Shown one piece after another: positions 55,462 to 62,699 of a stretch of 64,000 nucleotides of DNA. Under the pieces are notes generated by a model that saw only the letters and a list, made by a program, of their open reading frames with translations, did not search any database and had not been told where the DNA came from. The DNA comes from Candidatus Magasanikiibacteriota bacterium. Lineage in GTDB: Bacteria > Patescibacteriota > Patescibacteriia > Magasanikbacterales > UBA922. Within the stretch, counting starts at the first letter, position 1, and every line of letters begins with the position of its first letter. Both the position numbers and the translations under genes were made by a program. The DNA lies in contig JABIBU010000013.1 in assembly GCA_018652595.1 (NCBI GenBank), positions 93,043 through 157,042 on the forward strand. The letters run 5' to 3'.

Positions 55462-55573
55462 ACTAAAAAGCCTAAAATGCCTTAAAAGCTGAAAAAGCTG
55501 AGAAGGCTTATAAAAATAATATACTAATTATAGCCTTTTTAAAAATTTTTGGCAATAGTACGCAAGACAAACC

Positions 55574-55606
55574 AAAACCCCCCCGACTAGGTCGGGAGGG
55601 TTTTGT
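55574..55606. terminator. Bidirectional rho-independent terminator downstream of the giant surface-protein gene
   Basis: aaaaCCCCCCGACtagGTCGGGAGGGtttt. Confidence 0.6.
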
Positions 55607-55654: not shown

Positions 55655-58600
55655 TTAGTTGTTTGTTGGGGCTGATATCTTTGTACCGCCAATACTTGTA
55701 GTATCTAGTAATAGATAATCGAAGTTACTAGCTGTAGCATAAACAGTATCATAACCATCAAACCAATCAATATTGTTGTTTGCATCAGCAGCTCCACCCT
55801 TTAGATCATCCAATCCAACCTGAATCCAGTTGGTAATATTTGATGTTGGGCTTAAGCTGTTAATGTTAGCGTTTAGAGCAAAGTAAGCTGTTGTTCCGGC
55901 ATCGATGAAAGCGTCGTTTCCAAGAGTGGATGTAACGCTAGTCATTGTCCAGTCACCAGCAATATCTGCTGTAGTTGCGCCAGTACTACTTCCTGTTACA
56001 GTCAAATTAACTGCACCATTTGCACCACCAATTCTCTCGATAGTAGCACCACTAATAGAAGTAGATGCAAACTTTGTCATATCGAACAAGAAATTGTCAA
56101 TACCTAATTTTAGAGCATTGCCATTGGCGTCAGTATTACTACCAGCTTCAACAGTAATGGCCACGATACCTACAGTAGTACTACCAGTACCTGCAATAGT
56201 TGAGGCAACTGTCTTACCACCATAAGAACTAACTAATTCTACATTGCTGATCTTTGTACCAGATATATAGAAAATAGTTGTACTTGCTGTACCGGTAAGA
56301 TCGGCTTCTTCACCAAAAGTACCATTGACATCAAGATCGAATACTATATCACCTGCGGCAATAGCGGCAGCAGAGCTAGAATAATAAGCTAACTCATCAC
56401 CAGATTCTACACCTTGAGCAGTCAAATGACCACTAGAAGTAACAATTCCAAACTGTACTAGGTCTTGTGAGTCTGCAGTAGCAGCACCAGCATTACCCAT
56501 TTCGTTTGTGGCCACATAGATATACCAATCATGTGTACCCATTGTCACTGTTTCATTGATATTATCAAAGAAAGCAAGCTGACTATTAACAGTAGTACAA
56601 CCAATTAGGTTTTCAGCAACAGCAGACATAGCAGAATACAGACATACTGATTCTACTGAGTCTTCGTCACCTGCGCTACTATTTGTCAACTTAAGATCTT
56701 TTACCATGATATCCTCAAAATCAGCTCTCATACGCAATTTACCAACCCAAGCATCTGAACCTGCCATCAACACTCTATCTTTGTCGAAGCTAGTATCAGC
56801 ATTACGCATTTGAACATATAGAATACCCTTTGAATTCAATGTTAGAATACGAGTAGTATCCAACTCATTACCAGCACTATCAAGAGCTGTGCCAGCTGAA
56901 TTGACAACACTAGCATCGTCATTATCTACATCTTTTGCTGTCAAACCGTCCATACGGATATGAACTATATTGGCAGTAGTACTTACAGTACTAGCGACGC
57001 TACCTTTCACAACAAAGGTGGCTTTGTCACCAGATGCGACAGTAAAGTCTAGGGTGTCAAAATCCAAATCATCAGCAGTCATTCCTGAGTTAGTGATGTT
57101 TTGTTGTAATTCATATTCACCAGCATCGCTAACCAAGTAAAAGCCCATATCAGACCAATTTGTAATAGCAAATAAATTGGTAGTAGTAGCTTCGAATTGT
57201 GCGCGTTCTATTCTAACATCACCAGCAGTAGCATCCATTGTACCTTGGAATAAGATTACGCTACTATCATTTACTACTGCATTACCAGTATTCATTGGAG
57301 TAGCTTTTACAGTCAAAGTAGGTTTTCTTACAGTAATCAACTTACCAGTAACAGTACCTACAGAGAAATTGCTAACAGAGTCTCCTGCAGGAACAGTCTC
57401 AGCTGTAATATTTGCAGTATTGACGCTTAGCTTGTAGCTATCATCTTCACCAGCAGTAGTACTAGCTGGGATATCACCACGAACAAGCAAAGTGATTGAT
57501 TCGCCGGCTGAAAGATAAATTTCATCAGTATAAACCCAATCTTCAGTTACAGCGTCAGTATCTACTCCGCTAGCAGTAGTACCAGAATAAGCAGCGCCAG
57601 AAACAACGTCTACCAATTCTAGATCGTCTACAGCTATTACAAAAGTACCAGTATCGGCACCGTCTGTTTCGTCAACATCTACTTGAATAGATGTAATCTT
57701 GATATCTGTAGAACCAGAGCTAAGTGTAAGACGACCGAATTCTACATCAGTAGAATCATCAGCAGTTTCTAGAGCAACACTAGTTAGACCTACATTAAGC
57801 TCTGCACCAGCGATGGTAATAATATTACCTTCAGTGGCTGCATCATAGTTATCATCTGTAACAGTAAGTCTTGTGTTGTATGTATCACCAATTACATTCA
57901 AATCAGTTGTTGAGTCCAACACAAATTCAACTGTATTGGCAGCACCATTCACAATATCACCTTTTACAGTGAAAGTTTCATTCTTACTCTTAGAAATTGG
58001 AAATGCTTCATCCAAAACAAAAGTAATCTTGTCACTTACCATTGAAACAGGACCAGCCAATAAATCAGCGCCTTGATAAAGATAGATATTAGCTAAATTA
58101 TCATCAGCAGCGTTATTAGTCGCAGCCTTATTCTTCAATGTAATAGCGTTAAACATTGAATTTTCTACTGAATTTACAGCCAATTTGAACTTTGTCAAAG
58201 CGACATCAGTAGTACCAATATTCTTGCTTCCAGTAGTACCAACACCTGTAATAGTAACTCCACCAGTAGTTACAGAGACACCTGTCATCTGATTACCATA
58301 TAGAGGAGTACCACCTACATCACCGTCGTTTCCTAGACCCAAGTCTAGAATACCAATGGAGTTATAAGTTCCAGCTGTAAGTAAGTTAACAACGACAGTC
58401 AATTCCTTTGAAGTACCTGCTGTGATTGTCCAACCACCAGAGATATTATAAGTCATATAACCATCTGAGTGCCATGATGTTCTAGTACTACCAAGTTTTG
58501 TAGCACCATCATACAATGTAACAGATGTAAAGTCACCAGTAGCACCAAGACCGGTACGACCAATCTTTACAGAATTAACTACAGCATCATTGTCGTCACT

Positions 58601-59455
58601 AGCACGTAATATAGCCTTTAAGAAGACTACATTGTCAGTAGCTACAACAACATTACCTGCGTCAGGTGTGTTGGCTGATAGACTTACAGTCACATCACCA
58701 CCAACAACAGCTGGAGTTTCTGTATCATCATCAGCATCATCCCCTGCACTAGCAGTAATCTGACCTGGATCCTCTACTAGAGAGCCGGTAGTAACAGTTT
58801 CAGCACCCATTTCTAAGCTATCAAACGCAGCTTGAGAAACAGTATACAATACACCATTATAATCGCCATCTACCTCGTATGTCATGCCGTCTACAACAGA
58901 GTATACTTTTTCACCATCAACGGTGACAACCATACCATTTTGTAAAGTAACGTCAAGTGTTTCGGCTCCAGTAGTATAGTTAGCCCAATGAAAAGCGTGC
59001 ACATCTCTTACCATTGAAGCCCAAGCATCTCCGAAAAGACCTTTTGCAACTGCCTCGCTAGTAATTTTTGTACGCATATTACCTGGAAGAACAGCAAAGA
59101 CAGATGGACCGTCAATACGTTTTACTAGGTAAGAACCAGGGCGATAGTTTACGCCAGCTGGATCACCTTGTGGATATAACTCATTACAGGCAGCTGAAAT
59201 TTCTTCAACACCTGAATAATCTACAAACCAAGTTTTGTATACTTCCGCATTTGGGAAGTACATACTTTCCATATCTGCATTCAAGATGTACACAGCTGTA
59301 CCAGCACTTGTTTTGTACAAGTCACCAGCTTCTAGCTCTGGACATGCATCTTCTGCTACAGCAACCATAGGAACCAAGGCAGCAAGGCCAACGCTCCATA
59401 CAATTGTCATAGCGACAACAGACACGGTAAAGAATTTTTTTGCAATTTTTACCAT
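55655..59455 (-). CDS. Giant secreted surface protein (S-layer-like or adhesin-like), Thr/Ser/Gly/Val/Asp-rich
   Basis: 1266 aa. N-terminal signal peptide (MVKIAKKFFTVSVVAMTIVWSVGLAALVPMVAVA), no TM, low-complexity beta-rich repeats, and higher GC than neighbours. Confidence 0.65.
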   Translation of the reverse strand: MVKIAKKFFTVSVVAMTIVWSVGLAALVPMVAVAEDACPELEAGDLYKTSAGTAVYILNADMESMYFPNAEVYKTWFVDYSGVEEISAACNELYPQGDPAGVNYRPGSYLVKRIDGPSVFAVLPGNMRTKITSEAVAKGLFGDAWASMVRDVHAFHWANYTTGAETLDVTLQNGMVVTVDGEKVYSVVDGMTYEVDGDYNGVLYTVSQAAFDSLEMGAETVTTGSLVEDPGQITASAGDDADDDTETPAVVGGDVTVSLSANTPDAGNVVVATDNVVFLKAILRASDDNDAVVNSVKIGRTGLGATGDFTSVTLYDGATKLGSTRTSWHSDGYMTYNISGGWTITAGTSKELTVVVNLLTAGTYNSIGILDLGLGNDGDVGGTPLYGNQMTGVSVTTGGVTITGVGTTGSKNIGTTDVALTKFKLAVNSVENSMFNAITLKNKAATNNAADDNLANIYLYQGADLLAGPVSMVSDKITFVLDEAFPISKSKNETFTVKGDIVNGAANTVEFVLDSTTDLNVIGDTYNTRLTVTDDNYDAATEGNIITIAGAELNVGLTSVALETADDSTDVEFGRLTLSSGSTDIKITSIQVDVDETDGADTGTFVIAVDDLELVDVVSGAAYSGTTASGVDTDAVTEDWVYTDEIYLSAGESITLLVRGDIPASTTAGEDDSYKLSVNTANITAETVPAGDSVSNFSVGTVTGKLITVRKPTLTVKATPMNTGNAVVNDSSVILFQGTMDATAGDVRIERAQFEATTTNLFAITNWSDMGFYLVSDAGEYELQQNITNSGMTADDLDFDTLDFTVASGDKATFVVKGSVASTVSTTANIVHIRMDGLTAKDVDNDDASVVNSAGTALDSAGNELDTTRILTLNSKGILYVQMRNADTSFDKDRVLMAGSDAWVGKLRMRADFEDIMVKDLKLTNSSAGDEDSVESVCLYSAMSAVAENLIGCTTVNSQLAFFDNINETVTMGTHDWYIYVATNEMGNAGAATADSQDLVQFGIVTSSGHLTAQGVESGDELAYYSSSAAAIAAGDIVFDLDVNGTFGEEADLTGTASTTIFYISGTKISNVELVSSYGGKTVASTIAGTGSTTVGIVAITVEAGSNTDANGNALKLGIDNFLFDMTKFASTSISGATIERIGGANGAVNLTVTGSSTGATTADIAGDWTMTSVTSTLGNDAFIDAGTTAYFALNANINSLSPTSNITNWIQVGLDDLKGGAADANNNIDWFDGYDTVYATASNFDYLLLDTTSIGGTKISAPTNN

Positions 59456-59790
59456 ATTAATAGATATCCTAACTTATTTTAGGGCGCGATCCACTTTAAA
59501 GTAGACGTCTCCAAAATAAGCGAGTTTGTCGTTCTCCTAATCGAAGTAACGACTATTACATCCGACGACCGTCAGGCCTCAACCTTTGGTCAGATGGTTC
59601 TCCCCTTTCGCTGAAGCTACAGGGGATAAATCCCCCTTTCTTTTGCTAATTAGCAAAATTAGGGAGAAAAGATGCCTCCCCTCGACGTAACGTCGAGGTT
59701 ACTGTATGGCACGGGTCCTTCTAGCCAAACAAGTGCTACAAGGACCTAGCCGTACAGTATTTTAAAGGGCGATTAATAAACTCTTCTTTT
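59456..59790 (-). promoter_or_regulatory. About 335-nt GC-rich, highly structured 5' leader of the surface-protein gene
   Basis: Multiple perfect palindromes and hairpins (CCTCGACGttaCGTCGAGG, TTTTGCTAATTAGCAAAA, GGGGGATTTATCCCC, CTTATTTT...AAAATAAG). No ORF. Confidence 0.45.
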
Positions 59791-61203
59791 TTATTCAATA
59801 TTATTCTCTACCCAGCCCGAGACTGCCTGCCCACCAGATTGGAGGGGCCCGCCTTGGGTGGAAAAAACCTCTTCTACAATATCTGTACTAGTAGAATTTT
59901 CTACATTGGAATCAGCATTATGATCTACAACTTCTTCCTGCTCTACATCTAAAACATTCTCAACATCTATATCGCCCACAACATCTACAACACCTTCTTC
60001 TAATAAAATCTTTGTCTCTTTTGAGATTTCATCTATAGCTTTTTTTACTTCGTTTACTTCTTGTCCTGTTTGCTCTGTAGTATCTGACGCTTGTCTTACT
60101 CTTTCTAGAGCTTCTGATATTTGATTATTATCAACCAAATCCCTCATTTCTTCTAAGTCTTTTACAACCTCTTCTGTGTCATCAGTCTTTTTTACAACAC
60201 TGTCTACTGCAGTCTCTACATCTGCCAATTGAACACTACTAGTGGAAACAATATTTTCGACAACTGGTGCGGTACTAGTTGGCATACTAGTCTCGTCAAT
60301 CTCATCTTCTTTTTTTTCTTCCAGCTCATCCAATACGACCTTCATTTCTTCCAAATCTTTTACTACCCCATCTGTCTCCGTCTTTAGATCTCCCACATCC
60401 TCCAAAATACTATCTATCTGATCCTTTATTAAACCTTGCAAATCCTCGTCTGAAACTTCTACACCCTCTCCCTTTACCTGAACCACAGCTTCTACTGCCG
60501 AAATATTGGCCTCATTTACTTTTTTCTTTGTAGCAGACATATCTAGACCCTCTTCAGACGATTTTTCAGCATCTCTCAAATCATCCTTTATTTCCTTGGT
60601 CTTTTCTGCTACCACCTTACTAGCTTCTACTACTTTTTCTGGTTGATTTTCTGTGACTTTTTTCAACTTATCATTAGCAGAATCAATTGACTTTTCTAGG
60701 TGCTCTATAGCTATGCCTACATTTTTAGAAGTTTCTTCTTTGGATATTTCTTCGTCTTTTTTTTCTACTATTTTTTTCACTTCTTTTGCGCGACGAGTGG
60801 CAAATTCTAGATGTAACTCTGCTTCTTTTTGGTCCGAAGAAGTCATAGATGCTACAATTTGTTGTGTTTTTTCGGTAGCCATCTTTACTCCATAGCCTAT
60901 ATCTCCTGGCAAGGAATTGGCCGTAGCTCCCACACTAGCTATCCATCCACTAGTTGCGACTGCTCCGATGAGCAAGAACACAAGCACTGGACGAACAACT
61001 GAATAAACCATCTGACCCGGCACAATGACATTAATCATGTCCCAAATATATGTAAAAGAAAATGTATTTTTTTCATTAGTAGTGCTATTGCCAATTTGGC
61101 ACATCATCTTTTCTTTGTTTTCCAAAACCCAAGAACGATCGGGGTTAATCCGACTGTTAGTATTTTTTAGTTTCTTCAATTGTTCTTTGGTGTTGTGGTA
61201 CAT
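59791..61203 (-). CDS. Putative anti-sigma factor: single-pass membrane protein with a long acidic coiled-coil extracytoplasmic domain (DUF5667-like)
   Basis: It lies immediately downstream of the ECF sigma gene. About 70 aa of cytoplasmic N-terminus, one TM (PVLVFLLIGAVATSGWIASV), then a D/E/K-rich helical domain. Confidence 0.5.
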   Translation of the reverse strand: MYHNTKEQLKKLKNTNSRINPDRSWVLENKEKMMCQIGNSTTNEKNTFSFTYIWDMINVIVPGQMVYSVVRPVLVFLLIGAVATSGWIASVGATANSLPGDIGYGVKMATEKTQQIVASMTSSDQKEAELHLEFATRRAKEVKKIVEKKDEEISKEETSKNVGIAIEHLEKSIDSANDKLKKVTENQPEKVVEASKVVAEKTKEIKDDLRDAEKSSEEGLDMSATKKKVNEANISAVEAVVQVKGEGVEVSDEDLQGLIKDQIDSILEDVGDLKTETDGVVKDLEEMKVVLDELEEKKEDEIDETSMPTSTAPVVENIVSTSSVQLADVETAVDSVVKKTDDTEEVVKDLEEMRDLVDNNQISEALERVRQASDTTEQTGQEVNEVKKAIDEISKETKILLEEGVVDVVGDIDVENVLDVEQEEVVDHNADSNVENSTSTDIVEEVFSTQGGPLQSGGQAVSGWVENNIE

Positions 61204-61211
61204 AACTATGA

Positions 61212-61760
61212 TTAGTCTTGTTCCAAAAGCTCTTGAAGTTTTTTAGTTGCACGATGCAAGGTCACTCTTACATTAGTTTTTGATTTGTCTAGTATTGAAG
61301 ATATTTCTGAAGTTGTCAGCTCTTCTACAAAACGCAGTAGTATCACTTCCTGATATTCCTGCTTCATTCTTTTTACAACTATCATTATTTTTTCCACCTC
61401 AATATCTATTTCAACTTTTTCATAATTTTTATCATCAGCCAGCAAGACTACTGAATCAAGTGAACACTCTTGCCTTTTTGCTCTCTGGCGATAAAAATCA
61501 ATTATTGAATTTCGAGCTATTCTATAAATTAATCCTGTAAAGCTTCCTATTTCTTTTTTTCTATTTTCAATTAAATAGTTCCAAACTTTCAAAAAAACAT
61601 CACTCGTAATATCTTCGGTCTCTTCCTTATTATTAATTTTAAAGAAAACAAACCGATAAATTTTTTCTACATACAAATTATAAAGCTCACCAAAAGCAGC
61701 AGAATCTTTCTTTGTTCTAATCTTAAATAGTAATGCTTTTTCTTCCATTTTTAGCTTCAT
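61212..61760 (-). CDS. ECF-type RNA polymerase sigma-70 factor (sigma-24 family)
   Basis: Region 2 (FGELYNLYVEKIYRFV...DVFLKVW) and a region 4 HTH (LTTSEISSILDKSKTNVRVTLHRATKKL). 182 aa. Confidence 0.85.
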   Translation of the reverse strand: MKLKMEEKALLFKIRTKKDSAAFGELYNLYVEKIYRFVFFKINNKEETEDITSDVFLKVWNYLIENRKKEIGSFTGLIYRIARNSIIDFYRQRAKRQECSLDSVVLLADDKNYEKVEIDIEVEKIMIVVKRMKQEYQEVILLRFVEELTTSEISSILDKSKTNVRVTLHRATKKLQELLEQD

Positions 61761-62047
61761 AGTAGAAGACGTGAAAGTTAGTAAAGTGTTACACTTGGAC
61801 TATCTAGGCAAATTACGATGTAAACGTAATCAAAATAAGCCACCCGTTACGGTGAGCCCTAAATACTGTACGAGATGCATTATAGCACAACTTAGCACAA
61901 AAAAGCAAGATTGGGACCCTAAACTGGGGATAAGTAGGCTTAGGTATAATAGGTATTAGGTGTGTAGATTTTACTTTTCATTTTAAACGATACTGATTAT
62001 TTTTTATCTAAAACTTTATGCTTTCCCCCTTTCTACTTTATACTCAA

Positions 62048-62369: not shown

Positions 62370-62699
62370 ATGGTTGATTCAACTATACAAAAACCAGATA
62401 CTAGTGAAAAAGAGATAGTAAGAGTTTCTATTTCAGAGGCCGGCCGTCTTTTTGGTGTAAATCCACAGACAATCAGGCGTGCTATCCAAGCTGAAGAAAT
62501 CACTTACATAATAGTGGCTGGTAGGTATAAGATAAACTTTGAGAGTCTAGTAAAATGGTCACAAGCCAAAACAACTGTGAAAAATAAAAGCGATCAAAGA
62601 GGAATCGGACAATATGTGGATAGATGGAAGATAAAGAACAAGCTATACTCTCCGAGTAAAAAAACGATTAAATCTAAAAATAAAGACTCTGCTGAATAG
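62370..62699 (+). CDS. Small HTH DNA-binding protein (excisionase-like HTH_17 family)
   Basis: ISEAGRLFGVNPQTIRRAIQAEEI helix-turn-helix. 109 aa with a basic C-terminal tail. Confidence 0.55.
   Translation: MVDSTIQKPDTSEKEIVRVSISEAGRLFGVNPQTIRRAIQAEEITYIIVAGRYKINFESLVKWSQAKTTVKNKSDQRGIGQYVDRWKIKNKLYSPSKKTIKSKNKDSAE

Follow-up and report, generated by a model that had tools for sequence, protein, structure and literature searches.

A conserved, covarying RNA structure directly upstream of a large surface-protein gene in Magasanikbacteria

The surface-protein locus and its leader region

We analysed a stretch of 64,000 nucleotides from a Candidatus Magasanikiibacteriota bacterium (assembly GCA_018652595.1, contig JABIBU010000013.1, positions 93,043 to 157,042), which is called the window in the following, with respect to a 335-nt gap in front of a gene coding for a surface protein of 1266 amino acids. 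The gap carries a conserved, covarying and strand-specific RNA structure, which travels with the surface-protein gene and adjoins its start codon. On the minus strand, the gene order runs from a gene for a sigma factor of the extracytoplasmic function (ECF) type via a DUF5667 anti-sigma gene and the gap to the surface-protein gene, with the following coordinates in the window:

61212–61760, minus strand: ECF-type sigma factor with Sigma70_r2/r4 domains; conserved synteny, outside the RNA element
59791–61203, minus strand: DUF5667 protein of 470 amino acids, fits an anti-sigma factor; conserved synteny, outside the RNA element
59456–59790, minus strand: leader gap of 335 nt between the anti-sigma and surface-protein genes
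55655–59455, minus strand: surface-protein gene, 1266 amino acids, with an N-terminal signal-like segment and without a Pfam domain

These open reading frames (ORFs) and the gap between them are as described in the original prediction, which had been made from the sequence letters. It had also called the gap far more GC-rich than the rest of the genome: at a GC content of 0.44, the gap is indeed GC-rich for an intergenic region (0.347 in the whole window and 0.25 to 0.40 in ten other intergenic regions), but the wording was somewhat overstated, as the adjoining surface-protein gene reaches 0.40. Its view of the region as highly structured was borne out by a minimum free energy (MFE) of −127 kcal/mol on the gene strand, compared to −86 ± 5 kcal/mol in dinucleotide shuffles (z = −8.0, with 0/100 shuffles equal), and folding the opposite strand of the gap gave a z value of −7.4. 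Searching the whole window with all 4227 families of Rfam 15 by cmscan identified only two tRNAs at 3.3–3.5 kb and nothing in the leader, while a permissive scan of the leader region (E ≤ 10) returned three chance-level matches of 15–16 bits, compared to thresholds of 48–88 bits. A search for tmRNA with ARAGORN was also negative, so that Rfam and ARAGORN together upheld, for either strand, the earlier statement that the region could not be matched to RNase P, tmRNA, SRP RNA or 6S RNA. The Rfam scan of ten related loci yielded tRNAs only, with mere chance matches in the leader of locus L046, and a limited literature search turned up no earlier description of the motif as a leader from the candidate phyla radiation (CPR) or from S-layer genes. 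The leader is an RNA motif specific to one gene and absent from Rfam 15.

Covariation and conservation of the RNA element

We compared the window with related loci from Magasanikbacteria and neighbouring CPR lineages, 15 of which were obtained from genomes, 25 from metagenomes and 5 by exact look-up; removing duplicates left 33 distinct loci, which are cited by their L numbers where needed. The element is present in 33 loci upstream of orthologous surface-protein genes, as expected from the original prediction of a leader belonging to this gene. A sigma factor identical to that of the window is encoded on a contig of a Candidatus Magasanikbacteria metagenome-assembled genome (MAG; GCA_018657365.1), and about 20 further contigs from metagenomes encode it too. 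Several of the MAGs with the locus (L012, L013 and L017) are labelled 'uncultured Gammaproteobacteria', which probably reflects mis-binning or mislabelling. The 3' portion of the element, from its core to the start codon, consists of the following parts in the window:

59559–59596, minus strand: core of P1, J12 and P2; P1 (CAUCUGAC/GUCGGAUG) encloses the bulge J12 and the hairpin P2 (GGCC-UGAC-GGUC)
59579–59588, minus strand: unpaired bulge J12, CAAAGGUUGA (consensus in the family AAAGGUCGA); no other sequence of the element is conserved as strongly
59556–59560, minus strand: J13, conserved UGUA(A) directly 3' of P1; TGT is invariant in a 13-sequence seed
59528–59553, minus strand: variable hairpin P3, absent in some loci; double changes at columns 291/312 and 292/311
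59473–59520, minus strand: P4/P5 domain; P4 is CUUAUUUUGGAG/CCCUAAAAUAAG with a G-C closing pair, P5 lies at 59506–59489
59453–59472, minus strand: unstructured tail (UUAGGAUAUCUAUUAAU), rich in A and U, with the surface-protein AUG; mean unpaired probability 0.50, compared to 0.35 in the leader

Junction-anchored parsing recovered the P1-J12-P2 arrangement in 29/29 loci, and we saw it in four more. P1 comprises 3–12 bp, and the 5' bulge J12 is 9 nt long and ends in AAAGGUCGA, with 0–2 nt on the side opposite the bulge. P2 is a hairpin of 4–7 bp with loops such as AUAA, GUAA, GAAA, GCAA or, in the subgroup of the window, UNNC, which are often GNRA-like. The same architecture emerged from folding each sequence separately and from the automated parser anchored on the junction. 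Every locus contains a motif of the type AA(A)GGUYGA at 100–260 nt before the AUG, and the AAAGGUCGA motif occurs a single time in the 64-kb window. The P4/P5 domain ends 13–40 nt before the AUG of the protein of 1.2–1.3 thousand amino acids (kaa) and is followed by the A/U-rich tail, which often reads UUAAUUAAU among the loci. Its internal loop, represented in the window by 5' AC (59508–59507) opposite 3' CGCG (59488–59485), is an invariant GAC ... (C)GCG(C) loop in about 24 loci, while the helix around it varies freely. Because P4/P5 is lacking, or can no longer be recognised, in a few divergent loci (L015, L017, L021, L035 and L056), we take P1-J12-P2 as the universal core. A pseudoknot between GGUCGA of J12 and UYGACC at the end of P4 was considered and rejected: only the invariant GUC:GAC triplet is always complementary, its flanks show no covariation, and P4 already uses the G of GAC for a pair of its own.

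The pairing is documented by compensatory changes. In a structure-registered alignment of 24 sequences with 31 pairs, 30/31 pairs exhibited double changes (14/14 in the core and 16/17 in P4/P5), and the covariation score amounted to 0.819, compared to 0.202 in shuffles (0/500 as high) and 0.08–0.17 after sliding the partners by 1–3 columns. Standard pairs filled 96.9% of the cells, compared to 57.1% in shuffles, a percentage which is inflated by construction through registering the helices sequence by sequence, while the diversity of pair types is not. The parser score exceeded those of 300 flank shuffles at p < 0.05 in 25/29 loci for P1-J12-P2 (Fisher 3e-29) and in 19/29 loci for P4-P5 (Fisher 1e-22), where the Fisher values overstate independence because the loci are phylogenetically related. 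An unsupervised alignment of five close relatives by MAFFT and RNAalifold contained 91 pairs, 18 of them compensatory, and recovered P1 to P5 together with two hairpins of the 5' module (H1 and H2, see below). Applied to the raw leaders, the same combination gave alignments that were broken by the variable hairpin lengths, and it was replaced by junction-anchored parsing and match-column seeds.

Covariance models found the element where it was expected. The initial model R1, which lacked P3, mis-assigned P3 as P4 and was rebuilt as R2, comprising the core and P3 to P5. R2 matched 16 loci at the expected place and strand and produced one match in the 64-kb window (59479–59594, minus strand, 33.5 bits) and one chance-level off-target match in 356 kb; it missed the loci without P3. 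The smaller core model R3 (33 positions) gave 17 on-target and 2 weak off-target matches and is specific but weak. The structure also belongs to the gene strand, which had the lower MFE in 28/29 loci (Wilcoxon p = 6e-6). About 15% of the paired cells are G-U pairs, which would become A-C mismatches on the other strand, and a 'terminator' on the plus strand at 59621–59637 has no plus-strand gene to serve.

The order of a gene for an HTH_17 protein, the sigma and anti-sigma genes, a gap of 209–563 nt, the surface-protein gene and a Wzy_C/TPR gene is kept even at 30% identity of the surface proteins. Where extra DNA follows the anti-sigma gene (L052/L053, L013 and L023), the conserved block remains adjoining the surface-protein gene. 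The insertions between the anti-sigma gene and the leader are an ORF for a GIY-YIG endonuclease (L052 2273–2566 and L053 1753–2016), which also sits after the surface-protein gene in another contig, and AT-rich direct-repeat arrays (TACTAATATACTA... and GACATTGGAAATT...; L013 5438–5670 and L023 5448–5750). Compared to L013, the leader is 76% identical over 400 nt of DNA, and the proteins are 53% identical; compared to L057 (L057 2650–3000, window 59456–59775), it is 84% identical, with 91% in the core, and the surface proteins share 43% identity over 48% of their length. By both comparisons, the leader DNA is kept better than the protein. In the comparison with L057, leader and N-terminus are conserved, while the surface protein behind them gives the impression of a mosaic or of fast evolution.

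The 5' module and signals around the element

About half of the loci, including the window, carry a 5' module consisting of the long hairpin H1 and further hairpins, while in the remaining loci, the element begins about 20 nt before P1 with the purine tract GGAGAGAGAAA. In the window, the module is composed as follows:

59700–59759, minus strand: long hairpin H1; UACUGUACGGC/GCCAUACAGUA form its lower stem, and a 2x3 internal loop separates this from an upper stem that varies
59680–59698, minus strand: hairpin H2, CCUCGACG-UUA-CGUCGAGG; pairs kept with changes at columns 90/115, 92/113 and 96/110
59662–59681, minus strand: hairpin H3, GGGGAG-GCAUCUUUU-CUCCC, whose GGCAU loop is conserved; resembles a terminator in the window, where UAAUUUUGC follows
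59641–59658, minus strand: lineage-specific hairpin H4, formed by the perfect palindrome of 18 nt, UUUUGCUAAUUAGCAAAA
59601–59636, minus strand: H5 region, which can pair in either of two ways that exclude each other, GGGGGAUUUAUCCCC or UCCCC...(GUAGC..GCGAA)...GGGGA

The 11-bp base of H1 (UACUGUAYGGC/GCCAUACAGUA) does not vary in sequence among about half of the loci, with GCCATACAG present in 14 of them, and H1 is absent from an 'AUAA-loop' subgroup (L019, L020, L024, L029, L030, L036 and L046). The consensus of the five relatives has ten invariant pairs in the lower stem of H1 and double changes in the upper one (columns 32/72, 33/71 and 44/58). H2 appears in relatives as UCCCGAC/GUCGGGA and CCUCCGACG/CGUCGGAGG. 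The U-tract after H3 is not conserved in L011, L013 and L026, so the terminator-like form is specific for the window, and an attenuator acting through H3 was rejected on this ground; a purine-rich tract of G(A)GGGGCAU or GGAGAGAGAAA is conserved 20–60 nt 5' of P1. The G- and C-runs in the 5' half of the leader permit several mutually exclusive pairings. For H5, the consensus fold chose the second one (UCCCC...GGGGA; columns 198–234, double changes at 213/230 and 214/229), and the first one, GGGGGAUUUAUCCCC, is also compatible in L057 and shares a C-run with the alternative helix.

The four repeats named in the original prediction are all found on the minus strand where it had placed them: CCTCGACG at 59698–59691 with CGTCGAGG at 59687–59680, TTTTGCTAATTAGCAAAA at 59658–59641, GGGGGATTTATCCCC at 59636–59622, and CTTATTTT at 59520–59513 with AAAATAAG at 59480–59473. 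The last of these, regarded as an outer stem, proved to be the conserved helix P4. The emphasised CCTCGACG hairpin and the 18-nt palindrome have kept their hairpin potential, but their sequences change between close relatives, and they lie outside the conserved core. The suggestion that the perfect palindrome could be a DNA operator is unlikely to hold, as hairpin-forming but unrelated sequences occupy its place in L057, L011, L026 and L013; because the sequences of the palindrome and of the CCTCGACG hairpin vary while the hairpin potential stays, RNA hairpins are favoured. The GGGGGATTTATCCCC repeat is present, but its hairpin competes with the alternative pairing preferred by the consensus fold. 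The truly invariant features, namely the AAAGGUCGA bulge, UGUA and the GAC/GCGC loop, had been missed.

With regard to transcription, we observed by eye in many loci −10-like boxes (TATAAT, TAAAAT) that precede the first conserved element by 10–25 nt. An ECF promoter, TGTAAC-N16-CGTC, is located just before the sigma gene (61765–61793, minus strand), ends about 8 nt before the sigma ATG (61760) and recurs upstream of the sigma gene in L013, L016, L021, L025 and L051, which implies that the sigma mRNA would be autoregulated and nearly leaderless. Further upstream, positions 61830–61890 of the minus strand contain an extended −10 promoter (TTGTGCTATAAT), then CGUACAGUAUUUA, and then a hairpin with a U-run (GGGCUCACCGUAACGGGUGGCUUAUUUUGA). 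This arrangement, which is conserved in L013, could represent a small transcript ending in a terminator, or an attenuator ahead of the ECF promoter. CGUACAGUAUUUA resembles the 3' arm of H1 and is the complement of its 5' arm (UACUGUACG), and a link of this element to H1 may exist. No terminator was found between the RNA element and the AUG in the window, L046 and L019, which were scanned for it. Further transcription signals lie behind the surface-protein gene:

55573–55605, minus strand: strong intrinsic terminator after the surface-protein gene, with a 15-bp stem and a U run

The terminator is followed by a near-consensus promoter (TTGCCA-17-TATAAT, within 55527–55605, minus strand) for the Wzy_C/TPR gene. 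As for translation, none of the approximately 48 gene starts in the window, including that of the surface-protein gene, is preceded by a Shine-Dalgarno sequence, and the upstream regions are A/U-rich (e.g. AATTAAT-ATG). The organism therefore appears to initiate independently of Shine-Dalgarno sequences, and because the genes of the window generally lack them, their absence from the surface-protein gene is normal. For the same reason, we rejected the AAAGG of J12 and the purine tract GGAGAGAGAAA as displaced Shine-Dalgarno sequences.

The surface protein has 117 homologues, which mostly measure 1.2–1.3 kaa and mostly derive from Magasanikbacteria or unclassified Patescibacteria, and some of the distant ones contain SLH or PG_binding_1 domains. 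On its 3' side, the gene is followed by the Wzy_C/TPR gene and then by a glycosylation cluster. Downstream from the start of the surface-protein gene, minus-strand genes continue without interruption over about 55 kb (3585–59455) and include glycosyltransferases, GDP-mannose dehydratase/epimerases and the O-antigen-ligase-like Wzy_C/TPR protein, a gene content which suggests that the surface protein may be glycosylated. On the other side of the locus, the MerR/excisionase-like HTH_17 gene (109 amino acids, 62370–62699, plus strand) lies divergently upstream of the sigma gene; it is conserved across the whole family, with copies at the equivalent position in L001 and L054–L056, and its product is a candidate regulator of the locus.

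Possible functions of the leader

We interpret the element as a new, gene-specific structured 5' leader RNA which stabilises the mRNA, binds a regulator or does both, and assign a probability of about 0.6 to this reading. A cis-acting 5' leader explains the data best because the structure is strand-specific, covaries, travels with the surface-protein gene and adjoins its start codon. The region would be transcribed as the surface-protein mRNA's 5' untranslated region (UTR) and would act in cis on this message. As proposed for other S-layer genes, a stack of stable hairpins may shield a very highly expressed mRNA from 5'-dependent decay, and mRNA stabilisation by the leader is plausible by this analogy. 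In addition, the invariant unpaired nucleotides may offer a specific docking site for a trans-acting factor, which would tune the translation or decay of the surface-protein message. Recognition by a specific partner is indicated because the AAAGGUCGA bulge, UGUA and the 1x2-type G-A-C/G-C-G-C loop are invariant within freely varying helices. An autogenous protein or a dedicated regulator would be favoured over a small molecule as this factor because the element keeps to a single gene family and has no expression platform.

Several observations weigh against this interpretation, in addition to the relatedness of the loci and the registration of the helices mentioned above. A sigma-70 promoter scan of the gap was negative in the window locus, L046 and L019, and the ECF motif TGTAAC-N16-CGTC is absent from all 29 leaders; because of the latter, the surface-protein gene is not obviously an ECF target through the leader region. 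With no promoter found by either search, read-through from the sigma operon into the surface-protein gene is possible. Partition-function folds leave the start region about 50% unpaired, and because it is neither consistently sequestered nor consistently exposed, no translational mechanism is visible; start-codon sequestration was rejected for lack of a consistent signal. The assignment of the surface protein to the S-layer proteins comes from context, because it has a signal-like N-terminus, a fitting size, SLH or PG-binding domains in distant homologues and adjoining Wzy_C and glycosylation genes. Finally, a pure stabiliser would need no invariant loops, and for a regulator site, the partner would be hypothetical.

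The invariant unpaired nucleotides (AAAGGUCGA, UGUA and GAC/GCGC) inside covarying helices are also reminiscent of aptamers, and the element might be a small-molecule or ion riboswitch, in which the P1-J12-P2 and P4-P5 junctions form a ligand pocket and the ligand alters translation of the surface protein. The alternative pairings of G-runs and C-runs in the 5' half would fit such a switch, and a long GC-rich gap in an AT-rich genome is the signature used in riboswitch discovery (PMC8723152). We regard a riboswitch as unlikely, as there is no conserved expression platform, the terminator-like hairpin (59681–59662) is confined to the window, the start codon is not sequestered, and no Rfam riboswitch matches. 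Moreover, the element precedes one gene family only, in fixed synteny, whereas known riboswitches usually control several functionally linked genes. Somewhat less probable still is an intercistronic processing or uncoupling element, in which transcripts read through from the ECF-driven operon are cut at the hairpins (especially the 11-bp stem of H1) by RNase III, E or J, and the hairpins then act as 5' stabilisers with which the downstream mRNA accumulates. The negative promoter scans of the gap, the start of the gap right after the anti-sigma stop codon without a conserved terminator, and the perfect, sequence-invariant duplex in the lower stem of H1 all suit this explanation. It is difficult to reconcile with the 200–300 nt of AT-rich repeats or the whole GIY-YIG ORF lying between the anti-sigma gene and the leader in several loci, with the −10-like boxes ahead of the first conserved element in many loci, and with the lack of H1 in half of the family.

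Regulation at the level of DNA, with the inverted repeats serving as operators for the divergently encoded HTH_17 protein or another factor, is highly improbable: the helices covary, changing their sequence while keeping the pairing, the G-U strand asymmetry in 28/29 loci is not expected of operators, the palindrome sequence is not conserved, and the H1 arms are 38–60 bp apart. The facts that speak for operators are the 18-nt perfect palindrome of the window, the invariant H1 arms (TACTGTA...TACAGTA), whose invariance we otherwise graded as uninformative on operator conservation, and a TACAGTA half-site recurring beside a sigma-70-like promoter upstream of the sigma gene. Equally remote is an independent small RNA gene, or a processive antitermination RNA resembling EAR or put, which would allow RNA polymerase to pass the terminator behind the surface-protein gene and continue into the 50-kb glycosylation cluster. 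In its favour are the two hairpin domains, whose internal loops are conserved, and the surroundings of the surface-protein gene, which is followed by a strong terminator and, further downstream, by a long polysaccharide cluster in the same orientation. However, no terminator separates the RNA from the AUG, the next gene possesses its own near-consensus promoter, Rfam gave no match to EAR or other families, and distant loci differ in their downstream genes while the leader remains with the surface-protein gene.

The preferred reading as a cis-acting leader places the element among RNAs of a familiar kind, namely gene-specific structured mRNA leaders or orphan cis-regulatory motifs, of which it is a new family. 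Stabilising 5' leaders of S-layer genes are also known from Aeromonas vapA and Thermus thermophilus slpA, and T. thermophilus SlpA binds its own 5' UTR. In Lactobacillus, S-layer genes possess long, structured and stabilising 5' UTRs, with mRNA half-lives of 14–15 minutes, and the untranslated leader sequences (UTLS) of slpA from L. acidophilus and L. crispatus are likewise long and strongly folded; they are located directly before the major surface-protein gene, as the present leader would be, for which high and stable expression is the expected role (PMC3666127). In contrast to these, from which it presumably differs in sequence and structure to judge by phylogenetic distance, the leader described here contains bulge and internal-loop nucleotides that are invariant across proteins of 30% identity, a feature dispensable for a plain stabilising hairpin at the 5' end, and it belongs to a CPR bacterium without Shine-Dalgarno usage. 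With the orphan cis-regulatory motifs from Breaker-lab pipelines such as DIMPL (PMC8723152), it shares the long GC-rich gap, covarying helices and invariant junctions 5' of a coding gene, but it has no terminator or start-sequestering platform, unlike orphan riboswitch candidates, and is tied to a single gene family. Autogenous leaders, such as those of ribosomal-protein genes, are similar in their gene-specific structure, in conserved unpaired nucleotides near the start codon and in preceding only the gene that would be regulated; for the leader described here, we identified no mimicry of another RNA site, and the binding protein is hypothetical. With the processive antitermination RNAs EAR of B. 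subtilis and put of phage HK022, our element has in common hairpin domains whose internal loops are conserved and a place at the start of a surface-polysaccharide region, whereas it has no match in Rfam (assumed to include EAR), the downstream gene has its own promoter, and the association is with the surface-protein gene rather than with the operon.

CPR/Patescibacteria account for a large share of bacterial diversity and have very small genomes, and their cell surface is central to an attached, host-dependent lifestyle. The leader represents a defined RNA motif, for which a covariance model is possible, for annotating the genomes of this group, and serves as a marker for a major surface-protein gene which itself contains no Pfam domain. 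It also offers an entry point to post-transcriptional control in organisms without Shine-Dalgarno-based initiation. If it were a stabiliser only, it might still be of practical use as an expression element, now that genetic tools for these bacteria are emerging, while invariant loops which bind a ligand or a protein would make it a new regulatory RNA class. A limited literature search revealed no lineage-specific RNA regulator for CPR/Patescibacteria. We consider it doubtful, though worth stating, that the leader acts as a genuine sensor, either in the manner of a riboswitch or with a dedicated protein bound to it, and couples the synthesis of the S-layer-type surface protein to the state of the envelope, possibly together with the ECF sigma/anti-sigma pair. 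In that case, it would be the first regulatory RNA class specific to CPR/Patescibacteria and would open a way to study how surface control works in these episymbionts.

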